Made by a program: the position numbers and the translations under genes
Origin: an uncultured virus (IMG/VR IMGVR_UViG_2061766007_000307)
Taxonomy: Duplodnaviria; Heunggongvirae; Uroviricota; Caudoviricetes
DNA: 64,000 nucleotides
Virus record (IMG/VR): IMGVR_UViG_2061766007_000307
Reading direction: 5' to 3' (one strand)
Shown: positions 4,997 through 54,040 of the stretch, one piece after another
How positions within the stretch are numbered: the first letter of the stretch is position 1
Layout of the letters: the number at the start of each line of letters is the position of its first letter
The notes under the pieces: generated by a model
Told to the model about the DNA's origin: nothing
Database searches by the model: none
What the model saw: the letters and a program-made list of their open reading frames with translations, nothing else

Positions 4997-5006
4997 NNNN
5001 NNNNNN

Positions 5007-6421: not shown

Positions 6422-8302
6422 TCATTTATACGTGGTCTGAAAGTTTTGATCGTTAGAATAATGCGTCATAGTACACTTGTAAGTTTTCACGAATTTCAAC
6501 TTTCCAGCATCCCATATTTTGTATGCATGCCTAGACCGCATTACATAGTCTTCCGTCAGCGAAGGGTCTTTCCTACATTCTTCAAGCTTGCATTTCATGA
6601 AATTCGACCTATGGTATCTGATGCCATTGATAGCCCATGAATAGCATGGAGCAGATAATCCGCATTCTTCAAACCCGCATACTTTATAGACATTGCCTTT
6701 TGTATAACATAGATCTCCATATGTGATGATTTCACGTGGATGATACATCCTTTCGAAATATTTCAGCATCTTCGAAAAGCCGCCAGACACTTCAGTGTCT
6801 TTGCAAGACACAACTCTATATATCTCATACGATCCTTCTTTTGGCTTCGATCCCATAGAATTGCGCAGCTTGCCGACAAGCATGACTTCAACTAATTCGC
6901 CATCATAGAACAGACCTATCTTATATGTTGAATTTACATATCCTTGTATATGATATGCGTTTACAAAAGGCGCAGCGCTCTTGCTGTCTATCTCTCTGAC
7001 TTCACATTTCCTTGCATGCACTCTCCTGGAGCATAAATGCAGTTTGGACTTGATGTAATCTTTAATGATATCCTGTCTCAAATACCAATCATCTTCCCAT
7101 ATATGTAATAATTGATACCCTAACTCATTGCATTTCAATGACTTATTTTGATGGTATTTCTTGTGCATCCTTGGGTTGAAATCTGAATGCCAGAATATTC
7201 CATTAAACTCTATAGCTATTCTCTTTTCAGGAATCACTATATCTAGCTCTAACGGATATATCAGTTTGCGGTCTCCAGATATAATCTCTCCATTGTAGAT
7301 GCTCTTGATATAATCAAGAAGCCCTGTTTCTGCTATGGATGAGCAGCCTATATATGGTGATTTTATAGGACATATTATGCTTGACTGCGATGATCTGCGT
7401 GTATACAGATTCTTATCTATCTCAAAAGACTTTTCAGTACACATGGAGCATGTAGGGTCGCTGCAAGATACTACATACGTATCTTGAGTCTCTCTTATTA
7501 TGTCTGGATGTCTTTCTAAAAATAACGAATGATTGATATCAATCATGTCTGATGTTTGGGTAAACCACTTTCCATCATATTTCTGAAAATTGGTCTCCAT
7601 TCTCTTTTTTATAACATCAGGGTTGAATGAAGGATTCTCGTAGCCTGTCTTGTTCCTGTATGTTTTCTGTATTTTTGTTTTGACTATATCAGACTGCATA
7701 GCATAGTCTGTACCGTATTTCATACGGCATGTCTTCATGGATTTGTCATGGAAATCTACCATCTCAAAAGGTGTTGCCACACCATATTTCGCCATACATG
7801 TAGCTTTCTGTTTAGCTTGGACATCCTTAGACTGTCCTACCCATTCTACGCCATATCTCTCCTTGAATGTATTGCATATGCGATCTTTCACAACAGATGA
7901 TTTGAATACATTATCTACTCCATATCTGTTGATCACTGTCTGTCTGCATGTTTCTTTCTTATCAGGATCTGCGTTGCAGCATTTAGAGCTGCAGTATATA
8001 GGGTATCCCGATTTGAAGTTCCTGAACTTCGTAGGACGTCCACATACCTTGCACAAGCCAGCTGCATGAGGATTGAAATATATGAATAATCGCTCAGAAA
8101 AGCTCTTATTTGCGCAGATCTCGGCAGACGTGATATCTTTATACAATTCAGGAAAACACTTAGAAAATACATGTTCTTTTTTGAACATGCCATTTGAGGT
8201 CTCTACTTGAAGGAAAGCGTATACATCTTCTTTGTTTGACGGGTTTCCTGAAAAGTGATATCTATCAAAAAGTTCTTTTATGTCTACGGGTCTCTTTGTC
8301 AT
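6422..8302 (-). CDS. Free-standing homing-endonuclease-like protein
   Basis: CxxC and YCSSKC zinc motifs, repeated T(C)xx(K/R)YG units, ELDIVIPEKRIAIEFNGIFWH Vsr/PD-(D/E)XK-like nuclease motif, IWEDDW. Confidence 0.78.
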   Translation of the reverse strand: MTKRPVDIKELFDRYHFSGNPSNKEDVYAFLQVETSNGMFKKEHVFSKCFPELYKDITSAEICANKSFSERLFIYFNPHAAGLCKVCGRPTKFRNFKSGYPIYCSSKCCNADPDKKETCRQTVINRYGVDNVFKSSVVKDRICNTFKERYGVEWVGQSKDVQAKQKATCMAKYGVATPFEMVDFHDKSMKTCRMKYGTDYAMQSDIVKTKIQKTYRNKTGYENPSFNPDVIKKRMETNFQKYDGKWFTQTSDMIDINHSLFLERHPDIIRETQDTYVVSCSDPTCSMCTEKSFEIDKNLYTRRSSQSSIICPIKSPYIGCSSIAETGLLDYIKSIYNGEIISGDRKLIYPLELDIVIPEKRIAIEFNGIFWHSDFNPRMHKKYHQNKSLKCNELGYQLLHIWEDDWYLRQDIIKDYIKSKLHLCSRRVHARKCEVREIDSKSAAPFVNAYHIQGYVNSTYKIGLFYDGELVEVMLVGKLRNSMGSKPKEGSYEIYRVVSCKDTEVSGGFSKMLKYFERMYHPREIITYGDLCYTKGNVYKVCGFEECGLSAPCYSWAINGIRYHRSNFMKCKLEECRKDPSLTEDYVMRSRHAYKIWDAGKLKFVKTYKCTMTHYSNDQNFQTTYK

Positions 8303-8520
8303 GATTGTGTATTTATCTTATTGCCTTTAGGGATGAGCCATGCCATATCATCAAGCCAATTGTTCTTCAGTGCTTTGGTATACGCTCCGTTAGATTTCTT
8401 TGCAAACTCAAGTCTGGAGGCATACTTCTTGGACTCCTTGAAAACTTCGTCTTTTGTCCATATGGTCTTTTCATTGATGAATACTGATGACGTTTTATAA
8501 ATAAAAGATAGACAAGACAC
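8299..8520 (-). CDS. Small protein with one WTKDEV...KNNWLD helical repeat of the type seen in phage endonucleases
   Basis: ATGA overlap with the downstream nuclease gene; start uncertain. Confidence 0.45.
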   Translation of the reverse strand: MSCLSFIYKTSSVFINEKTIWTKDEVFKESKKYASRLEFAKKSNGAYTKALKNNWLDDMAWLIPKGNKINTQS

Positions 8521-8538
8521 TTTAGATCTTGTCTATCT
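8506..8538 (-). terminator. Hairpin downstream of queC
   Basis: AGATAGACAAGA-N9-TCTTGTCTATCT followed by a T-tract on the minus strand. Confidence 0.6.
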
Positions 8539-8569
8539 CTGACGTTAACCAATAAATGAAAAATACAGA

Positions 8570-9319
8570 TTATTCCTGATATGGGACAGGATCTTTAAGA
8601 CCATTAACAGCAAAAGCTTCTAAGCGCTCTGTGCAGCTACCGCACTTTCCGCAGCTCTTTACTTCGTCGCTACCATCACCGCAAGGGATAGGATTGTAAC
8701 ATGTATGAGTATTTCTCAATACTTCTTCTCTTTCAGATTCAGTGAATCCCAAATGCTGCATTGCAGCAATACCAGATGCAAGAACAGCGCCTTTATCAAT
8801 ATTGACAAACGGTGCAATATAATCGACTCTCTCACTGCCCCAGTTTGAGAGGGCGTACAGCTCTCGTGCCATCTTTTGCGATGCTTCGCGACAATCGGGG
8901 TATATCGCGTGGTCCCCAGCGTGCAATCCCAAAGTAATCTTGACATCACTCTTAGTCTTGTTAGCCCAGCCCAAAGCCTTACCATAAATGATAGAAGAGA
9001 AAATGATATTACGGTTTTCAACAACAGTAGACTTCATATTCTCGTCAGCATAATGTCCTTCTGGAATAGCTTCGCCGCCTTTGTGCAGAGATGATGCAGA
9101 ATCCGAAAAACAATCGCGAAGATCAATGATCTGGTGTGAAACATTGAATCCTTTGTCCTGAAGGAACTTGATATTATTCTGGACCTTACGCAATTCAACA
9201 TCATGCTTCTGTCCATAGTTGAACGAGAATGCTCTAATTTCGTCGTAGCCGTTTGCAAGAAGATGCATCAACAGGCATGTGGAATCCAGTCCGCCGCTTA
9301 AACTTATAACTGCTTTCAT
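8570..9319 (-). CDS. queC: 7-cyano-7-deazaguanine synthase
   Basis: SGGLDS PP-loop, YGQKH, RN, YPDCR, TCY...CGKCGSCTER zinc site. Confidence 0.95.
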   Translation of the reverse strand: MKAVISLSGGLDSTCLLMHLLANGYDEIRAFSFNYGQKHDVELRKVQNNIKFLQDKGFNVSHQIIDLRDCFSDSASSLHKGGEAIPEGHYADENMKSTVVENRNIIFSSIIYGKALGWANKTKSDVKITLGLHAGDHAIYPDCREASQKMARELYALSNWGSERVDYIAPFVNIDKGAVLASGIAAMQHLGFTESEREEVLRNTHTCYNPIPCGDGSDEVKSCGKCGSCTERLEAFAVNGLKDPVPYQE

Positions 9320-12809: not shown

Positions 12810-13036
12810 GTGAACTACTCATGAACTAAAGATTCATGAGCTTCGGATTTCAACGAGATGTTTGCGTTGCGTACAGACCAGCTTTTCAGTTGGTTTAGAC
12901 TCCGTCNNNNNNNNNNNNNNNNNNNNNNNNNNNNNNNNNNNNCTGTAAAAATACAATGATGATTTTATATTTACACGAAATTTTGAACTTTTTGTACGAT
13001 TCATCCCCGAAACTGAAGATTTCTGGGTTTTCTCGT
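12810..13036 (-). mobile_element. Second tandem non-autonomous omegaRNA cassette (internal gap)
   Basis: Same layout; TCAT precedes ACGAGAAAACCC left end. Confidence 0.82.
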
Positions 13037-20258: not shown

Positions 20259-20302
20259 TGTAAAATAACTTATAGGAAGAGATAAAGAACATAAATCAGT
20301 AG

Positions 20303-20398
20303 TCTGCTGGAACTGCTGATTATACTGAGGGAGCAGATGTAAGGCCTGCCAGAGTTGAAATCTGAAGTTCACATACTAAAGATCTGTAAGTAGTTCAC
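20303..20398 (+). mobile_element. Degenerate family-1 omegaRNA/right-end remnant
   Basis: GCTGGAAC..GATTATAC.GAGGGAGCAGATGTAAG...GTTGAAATC.GAAG...GTAGTTCAC. Confidence 0.75.
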
Positions 20399-27233: not shown

Positions 27234-28427
27234 ATGGTAAAAATATACAAAACATATAAATACATGATGTGCCCGAATAAGGAGCAGGAAAGTGTTCTTG
27301 CGAGATATTTCGGGTCAGTCCGCTTTGTGTATAACCATTTCCTTGCTGAACGCAAAAGACAGTATAGTGAGAGCGGTAAGAGTGACAACTACCGCACACA
27401 AGCAAAAGCTTTGACCTTGTTGAAAAAGAAAGAAGATTTCGCTTGGCTGAAGGAAATCAACTCCCAGACACTACAGTTCTCTCTTCGCTGTTTGGAAACC
27501 GCATATACTAACTTTTTTAGCGGTAGAACGAAGTTTCCGAGATTCAAGATTAAAAAGAATGGAGGTAGTTTCACTGTTCCTCAGAACTGCTCCATCAAAG
27601 ATGGGAAAATCTACATACCAAAGTTCAAGCAAGGCATCAAAATCAAGGAGCACAGAACATTCCAAGGGAATGTCAGGAATATGACGATCTCCATAACGCC
27701 AAGCGGGAAATACTATGTTTCTATATTATCCGAAGTCGAACATAAGCCTTTGAGGAAAACCAACAAGAAGGTAGGGATAGACTTAGGTATCAAAGATTTC
27801 ATAGTAACTAGCGATGGTATGAGGTATTCAAGCAACAAGTTTGTCAAGCATTATGCCAAGAAACTTACAAAGGCTCAAAAGCGTTTGTCCAAAAAGTACA
27901 AAGGAAGTGGAGAGTGGCATAGGATGCGATTGAAGGTTGCGAGAATACAAGAGAAGATACACAACTGCCGTATGGACAAGTTGCATAAGATTTCCGCCGA
28001 TTTGGTAAGGAATTATGATGTGATTTGCTGCGAGGACTTGAATGTGAAAGGAATGCAGAGAAACCACAAACTCGCTCAAAGCATAGCTGATGCGAGCTGG
28101 GGTATGTTCTTGAATTTGCTTTCGTACAAATGTGAGAGGGACGATAAGCAGCTTGTTAAAGTGAGCAGGTTCTATCCATCCTCAAAGACTTGTAGCCACT
28201 GTGGTTATGTCAAGAAAGATTTGTCTCTGAAAGACAGATATTGGAAATGTCCTCATTGCGGGAATATGATCGATAGAGATTTGAATGCATCGATCAACAT
28301 CCTGAACGAAGGTATCAGAAATATATCGGCTGGAACGGTCGATTATACGGAGGGAGCAGACGTAAGACCTACTCGTGGGCAGTCAGCGTTGAAATCCGAA
28401 GCCTGCGAATCTTTAGTTCGTGGGTAG
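27234..28427 (+). CDS. tnpB: TnpB family 1, intact RuvC triad
   Basis: HTH N-terminus, GIDLG, CCEDL, zinc finger, DRDLNA; right end TTCAC at 28428-28432. Confidence 0.95.
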   Translation: MVKIYKTYKYMMCPNKEQESVLARYFGSVRFVYNHFLAERKRQYSESGKSDNYRTQAKALTLLKKKEDFAWLKEINSQTLQFSLRCLETAYTNFFSGRTKFPRFKIKKNGGSFTVPQNCSIKDGKIYIPKFKQGIKIKEHRTFQGNVRNMTISITPSGKYYVSILSEVEHKPLRKTNKKVGIDLGIKDFIVTSDGMRYSSNKFVKHYAKKLTKAQKRLSKKYKGSGEWHRMRLKVARIQEKIHNCRMDKLHKISADLVRNYDVICCEDLNVKGMQRNHKLAQSIADASWGMFLNLLSYKCERDDKQLVKVSRFYPSSKTCSHCGYVKKDLSLKDRYWKCPHCGNMIDRDLNASINILNEGIRNISAGTVDYTEGADVRPTRGQSALKSEACESLVRG

Positions 28428-28772
28428 TTCACTTGTGAATTGGAAGAAATCACAGATAGCCCATATGATATAATCTATTTCATCTATATCTTCTTTGACA
28501 TGATGCTGTGAGTAGCTATTCATGCTTACTATTCTCTTCAGAGTCTGCACTCTATGATATATGCTTGAAAATGATACAGTATGCGCTTTTCGAGGGTTTT
28601 CTTTTGCATATTCGTCTATACGTGACATGCAATAGTTCAATACATCTTGCTTTGTATAGCACATATATCCGTCACATAATACGCAATGTGCGATATCAAT
28701 CCACTTATGACTGATAAATTTTCTGCGGCGATACCATCCTTTACAATATGACATGAAGTTATCAAATATCAT
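28413..28772 (-). CDS. Hypothetical protein whose last codons come from the IS right end
   Basis: GTGATTATA at 28801; ends SELPTN* inside the right-end hairpin. Confidence 0.65.
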   Translation of the reverse strand: MIFDNFMSYCKGWYRRRKFISHKWIDIAHCVLCDGYMCYTKQDVLNYCMSRIDEYAKENPRKAHTVSFSSIYHRVQTLKRIVSMNSYSQHHVKEDIDEIDYIIWAICDFFQFTSELPTN

Positions 28773-29546: not shown

Positions 29547-31016
29547 TTAGCTGACTATAATTCTGGTATTTGATCCTGTATCAGCAATATATATTGTGTA
29601 ATCAGTTCCGCTGTACGAATATATAAGCTTAGCAGGATCGTCAATATAATCGTCTTGAGTAGGATCCCATATCTGGTGTGTGAATGTAGCACCTGATGGG
29701 ACCATGACGGCAAATGTAGACATGCTTTCAATATATACTGAATATCCGGCAGGAACTCTGTAATTATCTGCTATTGCTTCAAGCTCTGCATCTGTGAATA
29801 CATATGAATCTGTATCTGCTTTGTATGTATTAGGATAAGCTGTGTCTACTTCTAACATCATATCTGTAGAGCTATTGCTGCTGAATGGATACAGTCTCAA
29901 TGTCTCTTGGATCTTGCGGTCTGTTGTATTAGGATCTGTTGCTTTAGCATGAGTCCTCCATTCGGTACCTAGATCAGGTCCTGTTATAGGCGCTTCATGC
30001 CATGTTCCATTTACATTCAGATCAGATGTCACATTGCTGAAAGGCTTGTCCCATCCATCGAATATCCATCCGTCACGTACAGGATCGGCAGGTGCAACAG
30101 CATCACCTCCTTTATTGACTTTCTGTGTTTTTATAAGAGACCCGTTTACATACATATAGAACTTGACAGTGAACACTGTCTTCTCCCATGTTCCGTATAT
30201 ATTGGTATCAGTCTGAATATTTGTATAATCGCCGTTCCATCCAGTAAAAGTATAATCCTGTCTAGTCGGAGCAGATGGTGGTACTGCGTCATGTCCTTTC
30301 TTTATAGATTGCGTGCTTATGACAGAACCTCCGCTGTAATTATAGAACTTGACTGTGAATGTATCTCTTTCCCATGTTCCGTAGATATTCTTATCAGATG
30401 TAGCATTGAACGGCATAAGAGTGTCCCATCCCAGAAAAGCGTACCCTTCTCTTGTAGGGGATGTTGCTGGTGGATTCACTGGATTATTCTCTTTGACAGT
30501 CATAGACTCGAACAAGCTTCCACCGTTGTACGAATAGAAATTTATGGTGTATCTAGGAATAAGCTTATCCTCTACTATTGCTAATCTCCTTTCTAGATAA
30601 TCCACATACGACCTCAATACGACTGGGTCGTCAGAATCATTCATTCTCAGAGTATTAGGCTCTTCTATATTTATGATATACTCACCAGAGTTTAATTTTC
30701 TAGCAATAGTGGTAGTAGTTGCGCTTACGATCGCTGTAATGTTATTAGCATTAGCAGTTATGGCGTTCATAAGTGTTATATCCGCTGCTTTGCGCTCTGC
30801 TATCTCTTCAGTGAGGCCGTCTATACCAGAACCTCCACCTTCTGTTCCTATTTCAAACCATTGCCTGATGTTACCCTTCATTATATTCAGATATAAGCGG
30901 ATATTATCATCCGCTGCACTGATTTTCATCGCGTATAAAGGGTAGTCTTTTGCAGCAAGATACTCTCCCTTATTTTCAATAACAACGACTGCAGGATGTA
31001 ATGCATTTAATCTCAT
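29547..31016 (-). CDS. Protein with three InlB-B/Listeria-Bacteroides-type repeats (putative fibre/surface protein)
   Basis: Three xTVxFY...PTRxGYxFxGWD...GTW units. Confidence 0.8.
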   Translation of the reverse strand: MRLNALHPAVVVIENKGEYLAAKDYPLYAMKISAADDNIRLYLNIMKGNIRQWFEIGTEGGGSGIDGLTEEIAERKAADITLMNAITANANNITAIVSATTTTIARKLNSGEYIINIEEPNTLRMNDSDDPVVLRSYVDYLERRLAIVEDKLIPRYTINFYSYNGGSLFESMTVKENNPVNPPATSPTREGYAFLGWDTLMPFNATSDKNIYGTWERDTFTVKFYNYSGGSVISTQSIKKGHDAVPPSAPTRQDYTFTGWNGDYTNIQTDTNIYGTWEKTVFTVKFYMYVNGSLIKTQKVNKGGDAVAPADPVRDGWIFDGWDKPFSNVTSDLNVNGTWHEAPITGPDLGTEWRTHAKATDPNTTDRKIQETLRLYPFSSNSSTDMMLEVDTAYPNTYKADTDSYVFTDAELEAIADNYRVPAGYSVYIESMSTFAVMVPSGATFTHQIWDPTQDDYIDDPAKLIYSYSGTDYTIYIADTGSNTRIIVS

Positions 31017-34176: not shown

Positions 34177-36831
34177 TTACTCTGCGTTAGAAGTAAGCGC
34201 GCCTGTAGGAAGGATATAGCAGCGCTGAACAAGCTTCTCCATAGGACGGGCACCTTCGATCTTGATGTCAAGGACACCATAGAAATTGTCGATAATCTCT
34301 GCAGTATTATTAGTACTGTTCATGATTACCTCAAAGGCAGTCAATCCACCTGAACGCTGTGGAGTAGCTGTCACACTCTTCAAGAATGTGTTACATTTTG
34401 AAACTATCTCTGTTCTGATAGATTCGGTGTTCTCCTGGAATACATATGGTCTGATGATATTCTCGATCTCATCCATGATGTAAACCACGAAATCTCTGAA
34501 GCTCAATGCAGATAGTGCAGAAACAGGCTTCTGTTTAGCAGTCTTGTTACCATATACACATATTGTGTTCTGTTCATCTCCAGCATCAATGATAGCATTG
34601 ATACCCATAGCTTCAAGCCATTCTCTATCTTTTGTAGACAATGGAACTTCTGGGTTGTATCCTGGAAGAGCACCTCTCAATGTACCTGCAGCAACAGACC
34701 AAGGATTGTCTTTCTGGATGAACAGATTAGAAACTACACCTGCGGGAGGAAGAAGCTTAGCACCCTTGCGGTTCCATGGGTAGAAGTATCCTACATGTGT
34801 TGCGCCATCCTTGATATTAGGCACTGTGAAGATATCAGATGTTGCTATTGCTTTGTAATTCAAGCTGCCGAACTCATCTGTGAAATCATCTACCTTAGTC
34901 AATGCCAATGCAGAAGGTGCGTTAAGAAGGCCTGTTGCGTGCTGTGCCATACATACCTTAGCAAAGATTGCCTTAGAGCTAGGTTCGATGCCGTATCCCC
35001 AGCAGTCTACCAAGTATCTGAATGATACTACCATACGGTCTGTGATAGCCTTCCACATATTAGTATGTCCATAAACAGCTTCAGGAGCAGGTTCAGGTTC
35101 CCACTTGCCTGTAGTCTTGTTGCGAAGAGTCACAGCATATTTCAAAGGAGTATCTTCGGCATCTCTCAATGAATGAAGGATAGCCTTATAGTTGTTAGGG
35201 TTAGATGCACATGGCTCTACACCGACCTCAATCTTATCCATATGTGATGTCTCAAGGATCTTCTTCTCTGCAGGAGTGCCCTTCTCACAATAAGGAACTG
35301 TGAATCCTATGATATTAGTTGTAGATGCAAGATTTCTCAAGAATGTATCTATTGAAATATCTGTGCCTGCAGCATTTGTCAAGCCTGGAACAGATGCTCC
35401 TGTGTATGTATATACACCTGTGATACCATTACAGTCAAACAATGCGTCATCCATTCTGATGAACTGCAATGAAGATGCATGCTCGCCAAGACCCCAAGAT
35501 TTCATCAATGAGATCATGTCATTAGACAATGTCTTGACATCGCTGAAGATCACTATTGTAAACATGAAGTCAGCCAAAGTGTAATCAGATGCACTGAATC
35601 CTTTCTCATCTAGATATTCCTGCAGCTCGAATGGAATGTCATTTCCGTAGTAGTCTGAAATAGGAATATTGTATGCAAGCATTGATGATGTATCGCTTGG
35701 AGTCTTGTATACATATGCTCTGATATCATTACCAGAAGCGTTTGCAATATATACGAAAGGCTGTCCATCATATGTCTCATCATCAGCAGGGTTCAAATGA
35801 ACTGATGTATCGTATGGGTTAGACAAGATGCGGTTACCCAAAACGTCATTAGTTCCCAATAGCTTCACAATATCAATTGTGATGATATCTACCTCAGATT
35901 CGCTTGGTTCAGGCTCATCAGCAATTGTCAATGTAACGTTATCGCCAGAGCGAGTAATTGCTATATTAAGCTGGCGGTCATTAGAATATACATTGTCTAT
36001 ATCTGTAACGTAAACATGAGGTGTTTCTGATAGATACTCAGCCTTAGGATAGATCAACACATCTACAGGCTCTACATTTTCGTCCAAGATACTCGCTCCT
36101 GTCGGATCATCTGGGTTAGGGATATATCTGCAAAGATGTGCGCGACCGATAGGCTTATAAGTAGCATTGGCTATGTACCATAGGTTGTCGCTGTCTTTGT
36201 TGATGTCTTCTGAGAATATAATGACATTCAGATAATCATATTCTGCAAGCGCTGCAGCAGCTGCTGTATTATCTGTTCCATTGTTCTCAGTACCATTCTC
36301 TGTGTCATCACCTGCAAGATTACTCCATGTAACAACAGATTCGTCTGTAAAGTCACATAGCAATTTCTTTTCGCCTAACGTGATGATGTTCTGATCATTT
36401 ATAGAATCGCGCAAGCGGTCAGGCCATGGCTCATACCACAAAGCCGTAGAGAAAGCTCCTTTGATCGGTGATGCGAAAGGCTGTGCAAACTTTGTACCTA
36501 TTGCATATCCATCAATAACATTCTCTGCGTCACCATATGAATGAAGGTTAAGCGCAATAATCGGACCAGCTTTCAACATTTCAATAGCTGTACGATGGAA
36601 GAAACATCCGTTAGCCTCTAGTTTAGGGTCGATGTTGCCAAATATAGATACAAACTGATCTGAATCGTTGATCTTAAATGGCTTGTTGAATGGGCCTTTG
36701 TAAGAAAAGCCTGGAACAATTCGGCCTCTTGAATATGTGCTCTCGTATGTTGGCTGCATAGTGCTCAAATCGAACTCGCGGCGGTAAACACCGGCAGACT
36801 TGATACTAACTAATTCTTGAGATATTGCCAT
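34177..36831 (-). CDS. Contractile tail sheath protein (gp18-like)
   Basis: SAGVYRREFD, GPFNKP, FVSIFG, PWSVAAGTLRG, GINAI, YGNKT, VFQENT, STNNTAEIID. Confidence 0.92.
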   Translation of the reverse strand: MAISQELVSIKSAGVYRREFDLSTMQPTYESTYSRGRIVPGFSYKGPFNKPFKINDSDQFVSIFGNIDPKLEANGCFFHRTAIEMLKAGPIIALNLHSYGDAENVIDGYAIGTKFAQPFASPIKGAFSTALWYEPWPDRLRDSINDQNIITLGEKKLLCDFTDESVVTWSNLAGDDTENGTENNGTDNTAAAAALAEYDYLNVIIFSEDINKDSDNLWYIANATYKPIGRAHLCRYIPNPDDPTGASILDENVEPVDVLIYPKAEYLSETPHVYVTDIDNVYSNDRQLNIAITRSGDNVTLTIADEPEPSESEVDIITIDIVKLLGTNDVLGNRILSNPYDTSVHLNPADDETYDGQPFVYIANASGNDIRAYVYKTPSDTSSMLAYNIPISDYYGNDIPFELQEYLDEKGFSASDYTLADFMFTIVIFSDVKTLSNDMISLMKSWGLGEHASSLQFIRMDDALFDCNGITGVYTYTGASVPGLTNAAGTDISIDTFLRNLASTTNIIGFTVPYCEKGTPAEKKILETSHMDKIEVGVEPCASNPNNYKAILHSLRDAEDTPLKYAVTLRNKTTGKWEPEPAPEAVYGHTNMWKAITDRMVVSFRYLVDCWGYGIEPSSKAIFAKVCMAQHATGLLNAPSALALTKVDDFTDEFGSLNYKAIATSDIFTVPNIKDGATHVGYFYPWNRKGAKLLPPAGVVSNLFIQKDNPWSVAAGTLRGALPGYNPEVPLSTKDREWLEAMGINAIIDAGDEQNTICVYGNKTAKQKPVSALSALSFRDFVVYIMDEIENIIRPYVFQENTESIRTEIVSKCNTFLKSVTATPQRSGGLTAFEVIMNSTNNTAEIIDNFYGVLDIKIEGARPMEKLVQRCYILPTGALTSNAE

Positions 36832-37234: not shown

Positions 37235-37480
37235 GTGAACTACCCATGAACTAAAGATTCATAGGCTTCGGATTTCAACGGGATGTTTGTGTTGCGTACA
37301 GACCAACTTTTCAATTGGTTTAGACTCCGTCTTATTAGTCCCTCCCTCCGTATAATCGACTGTCCCGGCCGATGTTGTTTTATCAACACTGTAAAGATAC
37401 AATAATGATTTTACGTTTACACGAAATTTTAGACTTTTGTGTGATTCATCTAAGAAATTAAAGATTTCTGGGTTTCTCGT
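37235..37480 (-). mobile_element. Family-1 omegaRNA cassette with left end
   Basis: Homologous to 12810 and 38722. Confidence 0.85.
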
Positions 37481-37481
37481 A

Positions 37482-37672
37482 TGAAACAACAAAAACAATG
37501 TGCAATGTTTAATAAACACTGCACATTGCGCCCACCAAATAATGGTCAATTATTTATGACCTTGACGCTTCACTGGATGGCAAAAGGGATCATCCTCCAC
37601 GCCCATGAACACGCTTATTAACATGCACGTAATCATCAAATATATAATCACACAGATATGGCAATATGCTCT
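37482..37672 (-). ncRNA. Family-2 omegaRNA-like unit 3
   Basis: Direct repeat of unit 1 with GTGATTATA at 37643-37651. Confidence 0.7.
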
Positions 37673-37679
37673 GATTGGA

Positions 37680-38720
37680 AATAAAATATGCAATACCCTC
37701 GCGAGCACTGCATATATGAGAATTATCTGTTTAATTTTCTAACGTAAAGATACTATATTATAATGTATGTTCCAACAGAAACTTTGAAAATCTTTTCAAT
37801 ATATACAAAAAAGATAGCAGTACCCTCACGAGCATTGCTATCAGATGAATTTAATATTATTAAGTATGTACCGTGAACTGCCCACGAACCAAAGATTCGC
37901 GTGCTTCGGATTTCAACGGGATATTTGCGTTGCGTACAGACCAACTGAAAAGTTAGTTTAGACTCCGTCTTATTAGTCCCTCCCTCCGTATAATCGACCG
38001 TCCCAGCCGATGTTGGTTATCAACACTGTAAAGATACAACAATATTCTATATGATCAAACAAAAGCCTTGTTTATTGTATGTAAGTAACAAAAAGAAATG
38101 CAGTGCTCTCACGAGCACTGCATTCAAATGATTAATTTTTTATGGATTAGTTTTGTGTGCTGTAAAGATACAATAATGTTCTATATGATCAAACAAAAAC
38201 ATTGTTTATTGTATGTAAGCAACAAAAAGAAATGCAGTACTCTCACGAGCGCTGCATTCAAAGGATTAAATTTTATTGATTATGATACTGTAAAGATACT
38301 ATAATGTTCTGAATATCCAAACAGAAATATAGAAATTTTTCATATAATAAATATACAAAAGAAAAGCAGCACTCTCACGAGCACTGCTAGTCGAAAGGAT
38401 TATATTGTATTATGATATTGTAAAGATACTATGAAGTTCTGAATATCCAAACAGAAATAGAGAAATTTTTCATGTGATATATAAAAATGCAGTACTCTCA
38501 CGAGCACTGCATTCCTGGAAACATAAAAAAAATATAAAAAATAAATGGATGATCTTATTTTAGCTTAAATGCATAAAATTTATCCGCAGCTAAAGAACAA
38601 CACGTCCTATTGCCTGTATGTATGCATTTATATACATATAATCACGCAGAAATCTCTTTTTGATGCAAATATAAACAAAAAAAATAACATGCATTATTCT
38701 CGCGAGCATTGCATGTTATA
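37680..38720 (-). ncRNA. Array of seven conserved-hairpin sRNA-like units
   Basis: TGCAGTRCYCTCRCGAGCACTGCA-type hairpins at 37686, 37813, 38097, 38231, 38365, 38486, 38684, each with a T-tract 3' on the minus strand; TATCTTTAC motif about 30-35 nt upstream of four of them. Confidence 0.65.
37873..38037 (-). ncRNA. Family-1 omegaRNA without left end, using an sRNA-array promoter and terminator
   Basis: Upstream sequence 38026-38095 matches array unit 38160-38230 rather than the left-end hairpin. Confidence 0.7.
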
Positions 38721-38721
38721 A

Positions 38722-38969
38722 GTGAACTACTCATGAACTAAAGATTCATGAGCTTCGGATTTCAACGGGATGTTTGCGTTGCGTACAGACCGACTGAAAA
38801 GTTGGTTTAGACTCCGTCTTATTAGTCCCTCCCTCCGTATAATCGACCGTTCCAGCCGATGTTGTTTATCAACACTGTAAATATACAATAATGATTTTAT
38901 ATTTACAAGAAATTTTGAACTTTTTTGTGCGATTCATCCCAGAAACTGAAGATTTCTGGGTTTTCTCGT
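38722..38969 (-). mobile_element. Family-1 omegaRNA cassette with left end
   Basis: Complete ungapped copy; TCAT precedes the left end. Confidence 0.88.
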
Positions 38970-39044
38970 ATGATTTTATAAAGGTGCTGGATGCAATAAG
39001 AGCATGCAACACCTTTACCTTAAAGAGACGTATATATGCATTGA

Positions 39045-40391
39045 TTACATATCACCGAAACCACCGTTTGATGGTGAAGATGCTGCACCGAATGGATTGC
39101 TAGGAGCTGCTCCCATGTTACCTACAAATGGGTTGCTCTGCGGTGCTGCTCCCATATTGCCTGCAAATGGGTTGCTCTGTGGTGCTGCTCCATGCATGTT
39201 TACACCAAAAGGATTGCTTGCTGGAGCTGCCGGCTGGGCTGCAAACGGATTGGCTACCTGTATCTGAGGTGCTACACCCTGAGCTATTGCAGAAGCAGCT
39301 GTTCCTGCTGATGTTGTCATCATAGCCATTGCTTCTTGATAGCGTCTAGCAAATGTTTCTTGAACCTCTTTAACCTTTTCAGGAGTGAACATATTTGGGT
39401 TCGATGTCAGCAATGCATTGTACTTTTCTTTGATACCCTTGAATGCAGCATAGAATTGAGCCTTCCATGCTTCGTAAGCTTTAATATCAGTACCTACATA
39501 AACGAATGAGCCGCCAGATGTCTTGACTAACTTGTCGTGTCCTAGATCATATGATTGAAGTGATACATTGTACTGGATACGGCGGCTGCGAGATGCATCA
39601 TAAGACAAATCTACAACGATGGCCTTAGTATTAGAAGGCTGGACTAATTCTGCCATAGCACCGTAAAGTCCCTGCTCTTCAAATGCCTTGCTCAATGTAT
39701 ATGAAACACGGAACAAAACGAAGCGACCCACAGTATCTGGATTGTTCTTATTGCTAAGAATCTGGCCTAAGAAATACTTATTGTCAATAGTGCGTACGAA
39801 TTTCTTTCTTAATTCAGTGTCACCAGATAAAGCATTAAGCATCTTATCCAAAATGTCATCATGCTTATTAGCTACTCTTGGAGATATCTCGCAGAAAATA
39901 GGCTCTTTCTCGTCACACGGATCACATATCATTGTCATGATAGAGTTGAATACTGAAACAGACTTATTCTTATCGATCATGATAGGATAAGGTCTGATCA
40001 CGACTGTGTTGCTCTCCTTGTAATTCAAAGCGAAAATACACTCCTCTGTGATAGGTTCGTAACCACCTGAATCACCGTTGATTTGAGATACAACATCAAC
40101 TTCGTTTGATCCATCCATACCAGACAACCAATCATCCTCGCCACCTACGTTGTCAGGGATGTCGAACTGTGTCCCTTCATTGTTGTAACTTTCAGTTTCA
40201 ATTGAATGATTTGCATAAGGATTATCATGAACTGTTGTGTCAATGACTGATGCTCCTGGTACACTTTCTTCGTCCGCTGTACTGCTGACATTAAACGGAT
40301 TTGAAGCTGTTTCTGATGCTTCGCGAGCTGCCTTTTCTGTGGCTAGTCTCTTTTTACGCTGATACTGCGTTTCTTTAATTTCTTCTGCCAT
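39045..40391 (-). CDS. gp32-like single-stranded DNA-binding protein (putative)
   Basis: YFLGQILSNKNNPDTVGRFVLFRV resembles the T4 gp32 core; acidic N-terminal extension and NPF-repeat tail. Confidence 0.55.
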   Translation of the reverse strand: MAEEIKETQYQRKKRLATEKAAREASETASNPFNVSSTADEESVPGASVIDTTVHDNPYANHSIETESYNNEGTQFDIPDNVGGEDDWLSGMDGSNEVDVVSQINGDSGGYEPITEECIFALNYKESNTVVIRPYPIMIDKNKSVSVFNSIMTMICDPCDEKEPIFCEISPRVANKHDDILDKMLNALSGDTELRKKFVRTIDNKYFLGQILSNKNNPDTVGRFVLFRVSYTLSKAFEEQGLYGAMAELVQPSNTKAIVVDLSYDASRSRRIQYNVSLQSYDLGHDKLVKTSGGSFVYVGTDIKAYEAWKAQFYAAFKGIKEKYNALLTSNPNMFTPEKVKEVQETFARRYQEAMAMMTTSAGTAASAIAQGVAPQIQVANPFAAQPAAPASNPFGVNMHGAAPQSNPFAGNMGAAPQSNPFVGNMGAAPSNPFGAASSPSNGGFGDM

Positions 40392-50914: not shown

Positions 50915-52278
50915 CAAGAAAACCTCGAAATCTTTAGTTTCGTGGATGAATTGCACTAACCTTGGTTTACTATATAATCACTTATAGTGTCAGGATTAGC
51001 TTCTTCTATCGAACAAACTAAGCTTAAAAAGAGTTGTAAATTTGCAAAAATATATGTAATTTTACAGAAAAATTATAAAATGGTAAAGATATACAGAACA
51101 TACAAGTATAGGATGTATCCGAATAAGGAGCAAGAGCAAGTTCTTGCGAGATATTTCGGCTCTGTCCGTTTTGTGTATAACCATTTCCTTGCTGAACGCA
51201 AAAGGCAATACGAAGAGAACGGTAAGAGCGATAACTATCTTGCACAGGCAAAAACTTTGACCTTGCTGAAAAAGAAAGAAGATTTCGCATGGCTAAAAGA
51301 GATCAACTCCCAAACCTTGCAGTTTTCTCTCCGCTGTTTAGAAACCGCCTATACTAACTTTTTCAGCGGTAGAACGAAGTTTCCGAGATTCAAGACGAAG
51401 AAGCACGGAGGTAGCTTCACTGTCCTGCAAAACTGCTCTATCAAAGATGGAAAAATCTTTATTCCGAAGTTCAAACAAGGCATCAAAATCAAAGAGCACA
51501 GAGCATTCCAAGGGAATGTTAGAAATATGACGATTTCGGTCACACCAAGCGGGAAATGCTATGTTTCCATATTATCCGAAGTTGAACACGAACCTTCAAG
51601 GAAAACCAACAAGAAGGTCGGGATAGATTTAGGCATCAAGGATTTCATAGTAGCTAGCGATGGTGTGAGGTATTCAAGCAACACGTTTGTCAAGCATTAT
51701 GCTAAAAAGCTTACAAAAGCTCAAAAGTGCTTATCAAAGAAGCATAATGGTAGCGGTGAATGGCATAGGATGCGATTGAAGGTTGCGAAGATACATGAGA
51801 AGATACATAACTGCCGTATGGACAAATTGCATAAGATTTCTGCCGATTTGGTAAGGAATTATGATGTGATTTGTTGCGAGGATTTGAATGTGAAAGCTAT
51901 GCAGAGAAACCACAAGCTCGCACAAAGTATAGCTGATGCTAGCTGGGGTGCATTCTTGAATCTACTTTCGTACAAATGTGCGAGAGAAGATAAGCAGCTT
52001 GTCAAGATAGACAGGTTCTATCCTTCTTCAAAGACTTGCAGTCACTGCGGTTATGTTAAGAAAGACTTGTCTCTAAAAGACAGAACCTGGAAATGCCCTC
52101 ATTGCAGACAGATGATTGATCGCGATCTGAATGCCGCGATCAATATCCTAAATGAAGGCATTAGAAATATATCGGCTGGAACGGTCGATTATACGGAGGG
52201 AGCAGATGTAAGACCTACTTGTAGGCTGTCAGCGTTGAAATCCGAAGCCCGTGGATCTTTAGTTCATGAGTAGTTCAC
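50915..52278 (+). mobile_element. Non-autonomous IS200/IS605-type element (left end, tnpB, right end; no tnpA)
   Basis: Left hairpin CCTCGAAATCTTTAGTTTCGTGG and right hairpin ending GTAGTTCAC; left boundary approximate. Confidence 0.78.
51080..52273 (+). CDS. tnpB: TnpB family 1, intact RuvC triad
   Basis: Start MVKIYRTY by homology with 27234; same motifs. Confidence 0.95.
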   Translation: MVKIYRTYKYRMYPNKEQEQVLARYFGSVRFVYNHFLAERKRQYEENGKSDNYLAQAKTLTLLKKKEDFAWLKEINSQTLQFSLRCLETAYTNFFSGRTKFPRFKTKKHGGSFTVLQNCSIKDGKIFIPKFKQGIKIKEHRAFQGNVRNMTISVTPSGKCYVSILSEVEHEPSRKTNKKVGIDLGIKDFIVASDGVRYSSNTFVKHYAKKLTKAQKCLSKKHNGSGEWHRMRLKVAKIHEKIHNCRMDKLHKISADLVRNYDVICCEDLNVKAMQRNHKLAQSIADASWGAFLNLLSYKCAREDKQLVKIDRFYPSSKTCSHCGYVKKDLSLKDRTWKCPHCRQMIDRDLNAAINILNEGIRNISAGTVDYTEGADVRPTCRLSALKSEARGSLVHE

Positions 52279-54040
52279 ATGGGATGCTATTACGGCTAAC
52301 ATGATTGCTATTGAATGATTGAGGAGTATTGTCTATATATGACATAAGATCATAGTTGAATGCAGCAATATTGGTATCCATGCTAGGGTCTATCAGATCT
52401 TCTATGAAGTTCTGGAACTGCCTGTTGTTATATGCTGCGCTTGCTGTCACACAAGACATTGCCATATCATCATGGCCTGTAATAGCTGCATAAGATGATG
52501 ATCCTTCTTTTCTGCTGAAATTTGCAAATTCTCCGACAGTATCTATATCCTGGAGCACTATCTGTCTCTTGCTTTCCAATACACGGAAGTCCTGGCAGCA
52601 GCTTGCTTTAGAATCTTTGGTAAGGACTAATCCCTTGATATTTCCAGTCGGATTATAATTAATGATGGAAGAAGCTTCCATCTGGTTCATCTCACCGTCG
52701 ACCATAAACAAATAGTTATACAGAGATTCTCCATATTTATTCCACTCTATATTGATCATGTGATTATATGTGAGCATTGTATATGTAGACAGGCAGTATA
52801 AGACTTCTGCCATCTGTTTGATGGTAGCTTCAGAACTTTTCCAGTATCCGCACTGCACAAGTTTGATCTTGTCTCTGATATCATTAGAATTGTTCTGCAG
52901 TAGCGATATGTCGAATATTTGGATCACTGAAGAATCGTTTCCAGAACCTTCAGCAATATCTACTGACAGCAAGAATCGCTTGTCTGGCCTATTCAGCTCA
53001 TGAGTATCGAAATCTTCATGCCATCTGAAACATTCCATGAATGGGACTCCTGATGGAGCGTTGAAAGGCTTCGCTATAAATGTTGTAGTAGACTTCATCA
53101 GTTCTATAACGCGAGGTCCCAGAAGAGTATATCCAGAATCCATGAATGAGTTTCCATACTGTCTCATGAATGAAGCTTCACCTCCTACGTCTTTAAGAGT
53201 AGCTTTCATCCATGCCTCATCTCTTCCAGGACGCTCCCACCAGTCCACTCTGATAGGGACATATGAATTTTCACCTTTACATGCCTCGTCATATATATGA
53301 TAGAATCTGTTCAGTCCATTCGGTGTAGATGTTATTATGATCTTAGAGTCAGACATTGACGAAATGGTAGGCATCGCGTTCTCATAGAAGTTATCCAGCA
53401 GGTTCTTCTGTACATGAGCGAACTCATCACAATACAGCACGTGCACGGTGAATCCGATGAAAGAGTTCTTTGTTGTACCTTGGCATACTATACGCGATCC
53501 ATTATCGAACTTGATATTCTTGCTACTCATGTTCACAACGCCAGGCTGCAGGAAATACGGGATACGCTGCATAATCTCTCGTATCTTGTCAGCGATTTCT
53601 TCAGCTGACTGTGCTTTATTTGAAAGCAAACCGACAGTCTTCTCTGCATGGAATGTCGAATACCATAGCAAGAATATTGAAGCTGTGACGGTCTTACCCA
53701 TCTGTCGTGATGTCAAAACCACATTAAATCTGTTCTGCATATAGTTCTTCAGCATCTTCTTCTGGTAAGGAAAGAGCTTCACTTTCTTGTATCCCTGAGT
53801 ACCTGTCATGATATAACAATACGTCTCAGCATAATATATTATATCATTCTTGCACCGGTATATCTCTGCTATCTCTTCTCTGGTGTACATAAAAGGCATA
53901 TTGGCTCTGCGGAAGTCGCTGCTCTTGAAAAACGGTGACTTGCCTTTGATGATACCGTTTTCTGCATCCTCCTTCCACTTCTCAACCTTCTCGGTAGACC
54001 AGGTCACTACCTTCACCACTTCCTTCTTTTTCTTTGCCAT
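52259..54040 (-). CDS. terL: Terminase large subunit (T4 gp17-like)
   Basis: SRQMGKT, LYCDEFAH, ITSTPNG, SVDIAEG, HDDMAMS. Confidence 0.95.
   Translation of the reverse strand: MAKKKKEVVKVVTWSTEKVEKWKEDAENGIIKGKSPFFKSSDFRRANMPFMYTREEIAEIYRCKNDIIYYAETYCYIMTGTQGYKKVKLFPYQKKMLKNYMQNRFNVVLTSRQMGKTVTASIFLLWYSTFHAEKTVGLLSNKAQSAEEIADKIREIMQRIPYFLQPGVVNMSSKNIKFDNGSRIVCQGTTKNSFIGFTVHVLYCDEFAHVQKNLLDNFYENAMPTISSMSDSKIIITSTPNGLNRFYHIYDEACKGENSYVPIRVDWWERPGRDEAWMKATLKDVGGEASFMRQYGNSFMDSGYTLLGPRVIELMKSTTTFIAKPFNAPSGVPFMECFRWHEDFDTHELNRPDKRFLLSVDIAEGSGNDSSVIQIFDISLLQNNSNDIRDKIKLVQCGYWKSSEATIKQMAEVLYCLSTYTMLTYNHMINIEWNKYGESLYNYLFMVDGEMNQMEASSIINYNPTGNIKGLVLTKDSKASCCQDFRVLESKRQIVLQDIDTVGEFANFSRKEGSSSYAAITGHDDMAMSCVTASAAYNNRQFQNFIEDLIDPSMDTNIAAFNYDLMSYIDNTPQSFNSNHVSRNSIPCELLMN

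Follow-up and report, generated by a model that had tools for sequence, protein, structure and literature searches.

A TnpB omegaRNA scaffold lacking its left transposon end within a small-RNA array of a gut myophage

The phage window and its tnpB genes

The window, by which we mean the whole 64-kb stretch of DNA analysed here (IMG/VR record IMGVR_UViG_2061766007_000307), is phage DNA that encodes a large terminase, a tail sheath, a gp25-like baseplate protein, a lysozyme and QueC and carries six tRNA genes. The sequencing runs containing this stretch are mostly cattle or pig gut metagenomes according to the records of the individual runs, and the carrier of the elements described here is a myophage of cattle and pig gut metagenomes. 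The following genes and elements are relevant:

34177-36831, tail sheath gene
52259-54040, minus strand, large terminase gene
27234-28432, plus strand, tnpB1 with its omegaRNA and right end (RE); gene at 27234-28427, 397 aa, no left-end (LE) hairpin upstream
50918-52278, plus strand, tnpB2 element; LE hairpin at 50918-50960, gene at 51080-52273, RE ending at 52278

Two tnpB genes in the window are intact, a third is interrupted by N runs and a fourth is both divergent and frameshifted. TnpB1 matches the TnpB protein of ISDra2 (PDB 8h1j) over residues 6-394 with an E value of 1.7e-83. TnpB2 is 90% identical to TnpB1, and the motifs DLG, EDLN and DRD are kept in both proteins. We take the positions of these motifs in TnpB1 to be those of the RuvC residues of ISDra2 TnpB, the residue-level alignment of TnpB1 having been seen for its top match only, the AI-designed nuclease 9yyg. 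Judged from their sequences, the phage TnpBs look catalytically intact.

A covariance model located 13 scaffold copies in the window, which are full, miniature or decayed. Four N runs (282-291, 1045-1126, 4997-5006 and 12907-12942) all lie inside IS or scaffold copies, the structure of which is unreadable there. Two scaffold copies, at 300-181 and 5066-4949 on the minus strand, adjoin tRNA genes and have their upstream parts hidden by N runs; 18 nt separate the end of the former from the tRNA at 162-90, which lies downstream of it. No Y1 transposase (tnpA) was found among 52 scanned ORFs, out of 78 ORFs of at least 100 aa in the window, so that autonomous transposition can be demonstrated for no copy in the window.

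A minus-strand array of small transcription units

The 2.2-kb gap between the gene at 39045-40391 and the sheath gene is occupied by a minus-strand array of small transcription units. Along the minus strand, it consists of mini-IS A, a longer sRNA, sRNA1 to sRNA3, the unit of interest (from here: unit B), sRNA4, an X RNA, mini-IS C with a second X RNA, and a third X RNA. A simple terminator scan listed nine terminator-like hairpins in this array against 1.0 expected, though not the one of unit B. Rfam searches of the array at E values up to 1 gave no family match save one chance miRNA match. The units are located as follows:

38680-38990, minus strand, mini-IS A: TTTAT, LE hairpin, internal promoter, scaffold at 38874-38722, RE
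38417-38362, 38287-38230, 38159-38096 and 37741-37686, minus strand, four short sRNA units
38096-38244, minus strand, sRNA3 unit: promoter of the unit B type, 37-nt body, terminator; tandem paralogue of the frame of unit B
38029-38059, minus strand, promoter-like region of unit B: TTTG at 38059-38056, 19-nt spacer, TATCTTTA at 38036-38029; common to the sRNA3 unit
37873-38025, minus strand, omegaRNA scaffold of unit B (mini type), 153 nt, ending in GCAGTTCAC, the RE terminus
37843-37872, minus strand, guide position of unit B, 30 nt, GGTACATACTTAATAATATTAAATTCATCT
37807-37842, minus strand, terminator of unit B: 13-pair hairpin at 37842-37813 with a cGTGAg loop, then TTTTTT
37235-37490, minus strand, mini-IS C: LE hairpin, promoter, scaffold at 37388-37235

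The short sRNA units share a TAnnTTTAC-type box, an AT-rich body of about 30 nt and the conserved hairpin GCAGTGCTCGTGAGAGCACTGC with a GTGA loop. In mini-IS A, the guide position is taken by the terminator downstream of the gene at 39045-40391.

The X RNA is a structured RNA of about 150 nt present in three copies (37645-37493, 37235-37085 and 37060-36885, minus strand), all of which have a long terminator hairpin; its fold has a z value of -3.7, and none of 200 shuffles was as stable. Copies 1 and 3 possess their own promoter box GTGATTATATATTTG, the place of which in copy 2 is taken by mini-IS C, joined directly to this second copy (37490-37085) and replacing about 28 bp of the X promoter. 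As a consequence of the fusion, the ‘guide’ of the C omegaRNA is the 5′ end of X, a sequence close to the promoters of the two other X copies. In the RNA library X20, a 250-nt contig spans an X/scaffold joint of the unit C type.

Anatomy of unit B

All features of unit B are on the minus strand. Bacteroidota promoters have the -33/-7 consensus TTTG / TAnnTTTG; in unit B, the trinucleotide CAG at 38028-26, directly behind the promoter-like region, is the likely start region. Judged from this promoter type, the phage probably infects a rumen Bacteroidales. The scaffold is composed of a 5′ hairpin, the stem ATCGGCTG/CGGTCGAT, an expanded stem-loop, the long-range pairing CGGA/TCCG and the RE hairpin, and it terminates in the transposon-end motif TTCAC. 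The terminator stem contains one mismatch and two wobbles, and its hairpin is present in both the MFE and the centroid folds, while the fold of the whole unit is not distinctive (z -1.23). Transcription of the unit would yield an RNA of about 215 nt, made up of the 153-nt scaffold, the 30-nt guide and the terminator hairpin. In the RNA library X20, one contig lies over a tnpB 3′ end and none over bases specific to unit B.

The scaffold belongs to the IS200/IS605 family

Both intact tnpB genes have, at their 3′ and right ends (28323-28432 and 52169-52278), sequence homologous to the unit B scaffold, which also aligns with six copies from IMG/VR. One 41-mer of it occurs three times in the window but in none of 100 shuffles. 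Compared to the scaffold of mini-IS A, 141 of 153 positions are identical, and with a divergence of 8-15% among scaffold copies these are not very recent duplicates. The covariance model scored unit B at 100 bits and the other three mini-type copies at 108.7, 103.8 and 95.7 bits, values that are partly given by construction because all four were training sequences of the model. The consensus structure of the scaffold, derived from 14 sequences, has 22 pairs, and compensatory changes are seen at nine. All three helices are retained in unit B, where a single pair in the RE hairpin is broken (an A.G mismatch). In the mini-type copies, the 5′ hairpin and an expanded stem of about 30 nt stand where the tnpB-coding part would be. 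Similarity among all copies ends after GTTCAC, and the guide starts directly 3′ of the element end. By homology and structure, the scaffold of unit B is thus assigned to the TnpB omegaRNAs of the IS200/IS605 family.

An sRNA-type upstream region replaces the left end

The 85 nt upstream of unit B (38110-38026) are identical at 79 positions to the DNA upstream of sRNA3 (38244-38160), and the match takes in the last part of the terminator that precedes. Identity falls to 53-60 of 89-94 aligned columns (about 60%) when the same stretch is compared with the upstream DNA of the LE-bearing minis A, C and 12603. The LE hairpin motif (GAAA..CC..GAAATCTT) occurs at five places in the window, namely in A, in C, in the tandem minis at 13045-12559 and in tnpB2, and a motif search of the window found none within unit B. 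Of the two subterminal hairpins by which PATE are defined, unit B therefore has the RE hairpin and not the LE hairpin. These results bear out the initial annotation in describing an omegaRNA scaffold inside an sRNA unit, whose upstream DNA is that of the neighbouring sRNA promoters and not a left-end hairpin. They agree with it also in that a promoter-like box, a structurally intact scaffold, a 3′ guide position and a terminator have, as far as sequence can tell, all been kept.

From ATTnTTGTATCTTTACAG onward, the sequence of unit B follows the minis, while upstream of ATTnTTGTATCTTTACAG it is of the sRNA type. The alignments thus place the breakpoint of unit B in the promoter box TTGTATCTTTACAG, which is common to the sRNA and mini-IS units. 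The homology switch sits inside the ATTnTTGTATCTTTACAG box, as expected from the recombination at a shared promoter motif that the initial annotation had put forward as a possibility. Its proposal that the unit is unable to transpose is likewise consistent with our data: from the mechanism of IS200/IS605 elements, a unit without LE should not be excisable by TnpA. The right junction of unit B is the exact RE end, suggesting an original insertion of the transposition type, presumably followed by recombination or deletion on the left as a second step.

The 13045-12559 region (minus strand) holds two tandem mini-ISs, the RE of the first lying a few bases from the LE of the second, and is located just upstream of the divergent, frameshifted tnpB (12571-11439).

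Left-end loss is frequent, and relatives at 66-73% sheath identity lack the array

Four of the ten copies with readable upstream DNA in the window have no LE: unit B, tnpB1, the divergent copy at 20300-20398 and the copy at 31110-31041. Three further copies were left out of this count, their upstream DNA being hidden by N runs. In six IMG/VR phage relatives with 70-72% TnpB identity, the LE is full in two, truncated in one and absent from three. Loss of the left end is common in this family and is hence no sign of selection.

One of the LE-less units, at 31160-31041 on the minus strand, has an IS-type promoter (TTGTAAAT..TTATTTTCAG) and a short divergent scaffold ending in GTAGTTCAT; the guide of this unit reaches into the beginning of the gene at 29547-31016.

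In phages with 66-73% sheath identity, the locus is a 290-bp spacer with one sRNA-like unit, without scaffold or array. In this comparison of two groups, the unit B locus is present in three near-identical populations and absent from the more distant relatives. Relatives of the array or of the mini-type scaffold were found neither in GenBank phages (near and distant modes), nor in IMG/VR with patterns for the scaffold, the junction, the X RNA and the terminator, nor in JGI metagenomes by a 28-mer. A junction 20-mer matched 13 metagenome loci, none of them followed by a scaffold; by eye, they were tRNA genes, coding DNA and other sequence. In IMG/VR, a 19-mer of the tnpB-type scaffold matched one site by chance and, in two further cases, the 3′ end of a tnpB truncated by the end of its contig.

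The junction in other metagenomes

The initial annotation had raised the concern of a misassembly at position 38030. This position is bridged by a contig of run X1 (37986-38281) without differences, by a contig of run X5 (37985-38120) with two differences and by a contig of run X6 (37972-38120) with one. The three runs belong to three studies, two on bovine and one on pig gut, although X1 may be the source sample. The junction has hence been crossed by contigs of three studies, and the concern is not borne out. Scaffold, guide, terminator and sRNA4 are joined by further contigs of the same runs (X1 37450-37953, X5 37611-37985, X6 37482-37923).

In runs X5 and X6, the guide and scaffold of unit B are unchanged, at a divergence or SNP density of about 2% there. 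Run X5 has three changes in the terminator of unit B, two of which strengthen the stem. Unchanged guide and scaffold together with stem-strengthening changes at this level of divergence might indicate a degree of constraint.

The guide resembles an sRNA body, and no target was found in the collections searched

The guide of unit B and the body of sRNA2 are identical in 23 of 34 columns, a score reached by none of 1000 shuffles. The resemblance to the sRNA3 body is weaker (21 of 1000 shuffles reach the score), and the matches to the sRNA1 and sRNA4 bodies were not significant in the shuffle test. Body and terminator of unit B together align end to end with sRNA2 (44 of 62 columns). With the guide as a paralogue of an sRNA body, the scaffold is flanked precisely by an sRNA promoter on one side and by a complete sRNA body on the other. 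The guide would then be inherited flanking sequence, as in any IS605 insertion, and not evidently a selected spacer. Separately, a 16/19 match between the guide and the promoter spacer of sRNA4 was rejected as chance, as 53 of 500 shuffles reach its score.

Outside the window, the target search was one for exact 18-mers only, with the phage represented by its 64 kb and no host genome included. When up to three mismatches are allowed, no second site in the window matches the 20-mer of the guide. The exact 18-mer has three matches in IMG/VR and 20 in 185,579 species genomes (one per species), against about 17 expected from the size of the collection; all of these matches break off at 20 nt or less, and TTTAT precedes none of them. 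Four Bacteroidales matches were inspected, lying in an unnamed ORF, presumably a glycosyltransferase, in a partial frame homologous to that ORF, in a doubtful 118-aa frame and at a site with no frame of at least 80 aa; they have no context in common. A search for natural targets, as proposed in the initial annotation, has therefore been carried out and returned none for this guide in the window, IMG/VR or the species genomes.

The sequence TTTAT was chosen for the following reasons. It stands 14-19 nt before the LE hairpin in five of nine LE-bearing copies (A, 12854, 1882, L043 and L044) and is absent from this position in tnpB2 (which has ACTAT), C, L047 and 12603, the latter abutting the RE of its neighbour. 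All copies terminate in TTCAC. For ISGst2, TTTAT is described as the TAM of its TnpB2 and TTCAC as the transposon-end motif (TEM) (Meers 2023, PMC10055086). By analogy to this pair of motifs, we take TTTAT as the probable TAM of the TnpB elements of this phage. An ‘AAT’ TAM derived from LE flanks was dropped in favour of TTTAT; AAT precedes the guide 18-mer in four of the 20 genome matches, two of which are one and the same gene, and was treated as chance.

Comparison with described systems

Gene-less or standalone omegaRNA elements acting in trans have been outlined before (Altae-Tran 2021, as summarised in PMC10691335; Meers 2023, PMC10055086). Like these and the PATE-like elements portrayed there, unit B is a scaffold with a flanking guide and without nuclease gene, in a genome with compatible TnpBs, and would be expected to act in trans. 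PATE-like elements, as presented in these sources, keep both ends and are mobilised, whereas unit B is without LE and has the upstream half of its promoter from a resident sRNA gene. The missing LE and the chimeric promoter are what is new in unit B against the gene-less omegaRNAs described in these sources. The ordinary PATE-like form, with LE, internal promoter, omegaRNA scaffold and RE, is represented in the window by the minis A, C, 12603 and 12854.

The elements resemble ISGst2-type IS605 elements of Geobacillus stearothermophilus, as characterised in PMC10055086, in the TTCAC end and in the TTTAT preceding five of the nine LEs examined. The host range is different, a phage with promoters of the Bacteroidota type, and the likeness is drawn from the element ends, with the TAM deduced from flanks here. 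Like ISDra2 TnpB and its omegaRNA (PDB 8h1j, 8exa), TnpB1 is homologous and the guide is 3′ of the scaffold; unlike in ISDra2, the mini-type scaffold has an extra stem of about 30 nt and a 5′ hairpin replacing the tnpB-coding part.

TldR proteins are domesticated, nuclease-dead repressors derived from TnpB which, in the accounts available, are encoded beside their own gRNA, with guides matching conserved promoters. Unit B shares with their gRNAs that it is an immobile guide-RNA gene without left transposon end. It differs in that the phage TnpBs keep their catalytic motifs and are located 10-14 kb away, and in that no target was found in the collections searched.

Origin and possible roles of unit B

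We consider it probable that unit B is an immobilised by-product of IS decay, which is probably still transcribable and loadable by TnpB. This reading is favoured by the frequent loss of left ends, the lack of a tnpA among the scanned ORFs, the guide as a paralogue of an sRNA body and the negative target search. Unit B would be an immobilised, tnpB-less copy of an IS605-family element. An exchange at the box TTGTATCTTTACAG, which IS and sRNA promoters have in common, would have put the upstream half of an sRNA promoter in place of the LE and of the corresponding half of the IS promoter. Insertion by TnpA would have needed TTTAT to the left of the guide, and the present left flank, ..TTTACAG, neither shows nor excludes it. 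Transcription would start from the sRNA promoter and the RNA could load in trans into the two intact TnpBs of the phage. Such copies may persist, if at all, by TnpB homing, for which the LE would be dispensable. The predicted target of the complex is TTTAT-GGTACATACTTAATAA, and any residual activity might consist in the cleavage of phage alleles with TTTAT followed by GGTACATACTT.

Several observations speak against a mere decay product. Every part needed for expression has been kept, the scaffold is as well paired as those of the mobile copies except for one broken pair, and between bovine and pig gut the guide and scaffold are unchanged and the terminator stem is strengthened at about 2% divergence.

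It is unlikely that unit B still acts as an sRNA. In that case, its 30-nt body and terminator would be functional and the scaffold would be a tolerated leader at the 5′ end, which might be trimmed or be bound by TnpB. The full-length alignment of body and terminator with sRNA2 (44/62; body alone 23/34), the promoter type shared with sRNA3 and the maintained terminator hairpin, with its stem strengthened in run X5, all fit such a role. Yet no sRNA body has an antisense target in the window beyond chance-level 10-13-mers, and a structured leader of 153 nt would probably change the stability and action of an sRNA.

We give rather little credence to the view that unit B is a domesticated guide gene, which the phage keeps under its own promoter to aim an active TnpB at a fixed target in the host or a competing phage. 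The initial annotation had regarded it as the clearest case of such a gene, and our results do not support this claim. The complete set of promoter, scaffold, guide and terminator without LE, the recurrence in three studies with unchanged guide and scaffold, intact TnpBs available in trans, and the precedents of TldR gRNAs and omegaRNA arrays, as reported in the literature, would be compatible with it. Against it stand the paralogy of the guide to the neighbouring sRNA bodies, the lack of a second match in the window at up to three mismatches in 20 nt and the 18-mer matches at chance level (three in IMG/VR; 20 versus about 17 expected), none after TTTAT. In addition, the array is absent from relatives at 66-73% sheath identity, left-end loss is too common to be a sign of selection, and the partner TnpBs keep their catalytic motifs and are not adjacent.

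A more speculative idea, to which we assign a low probability, is that unit B is an intermediate in the birth of a fixed-guide system. A resident sRNA gene would have captured an omegaRNA scaffold stripped of its LE, and the recognition sequence of the sRNA would be turning into a DNA guide for an active TnpB, directed against a locus of a competing phage or host outside the searched databases.

Finally, it is very improbable that the unit is an assembly artefact, joined chimerically through the repeated promoter box near 38030: the window is scaffolded with all four N runs at IS copies and the region is repeat-rich, but the contigs of X1, X5 and X6, presumably built from 31-letter words as used in the index, extend across the junction by 44-58 nt into the scaffold and by 90-250 nt in the opposite direction, at 0-2 differences, the longest run at the junction common to other copies is 23 nt (by reading), and promoter half and scaffold half both carry substitutions private to unit B.

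The route from transposon guide RNAs to fixed guides serving the host, as in TldR or Cas12 arrays, is known mainly from its end points. If functional, unit B would be a rare intermediate on it: an omegaRNA immobile for TnpA, with a promoter not from an IS and a guide taken over from an sRNA, carried by a phage whose TnpBs are active. Even as the decay product that we hold to be more likely, it would illustrate that phage-borne IS605 copies commonly shed their left ends and that scaffolds can recombine into resident RNA genes through promoter boxes common to both.

Further features of the window

The right end of the tnpB2 element (52259-52278) overlaps the last codons and the stop codon of the large terminase ORF on the minus strand, and the insertion of tnpB2 seems to have supplied a new C-terminal end of the terminase.

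At 6422-9319 (minus strand), a QueC-family ORF is located near an ORF matching DUF7487, Mom-like and REase_MTES_1575. The Mom-like match (26.4 bits, Pfam cut-off 27.1) and the REase_MTES_1575 match (25.4 bits, cut-off 38.2) are both below their thresholds; together, the two ORFs hint at a DNA modification module of the 7-deazaguanine type.
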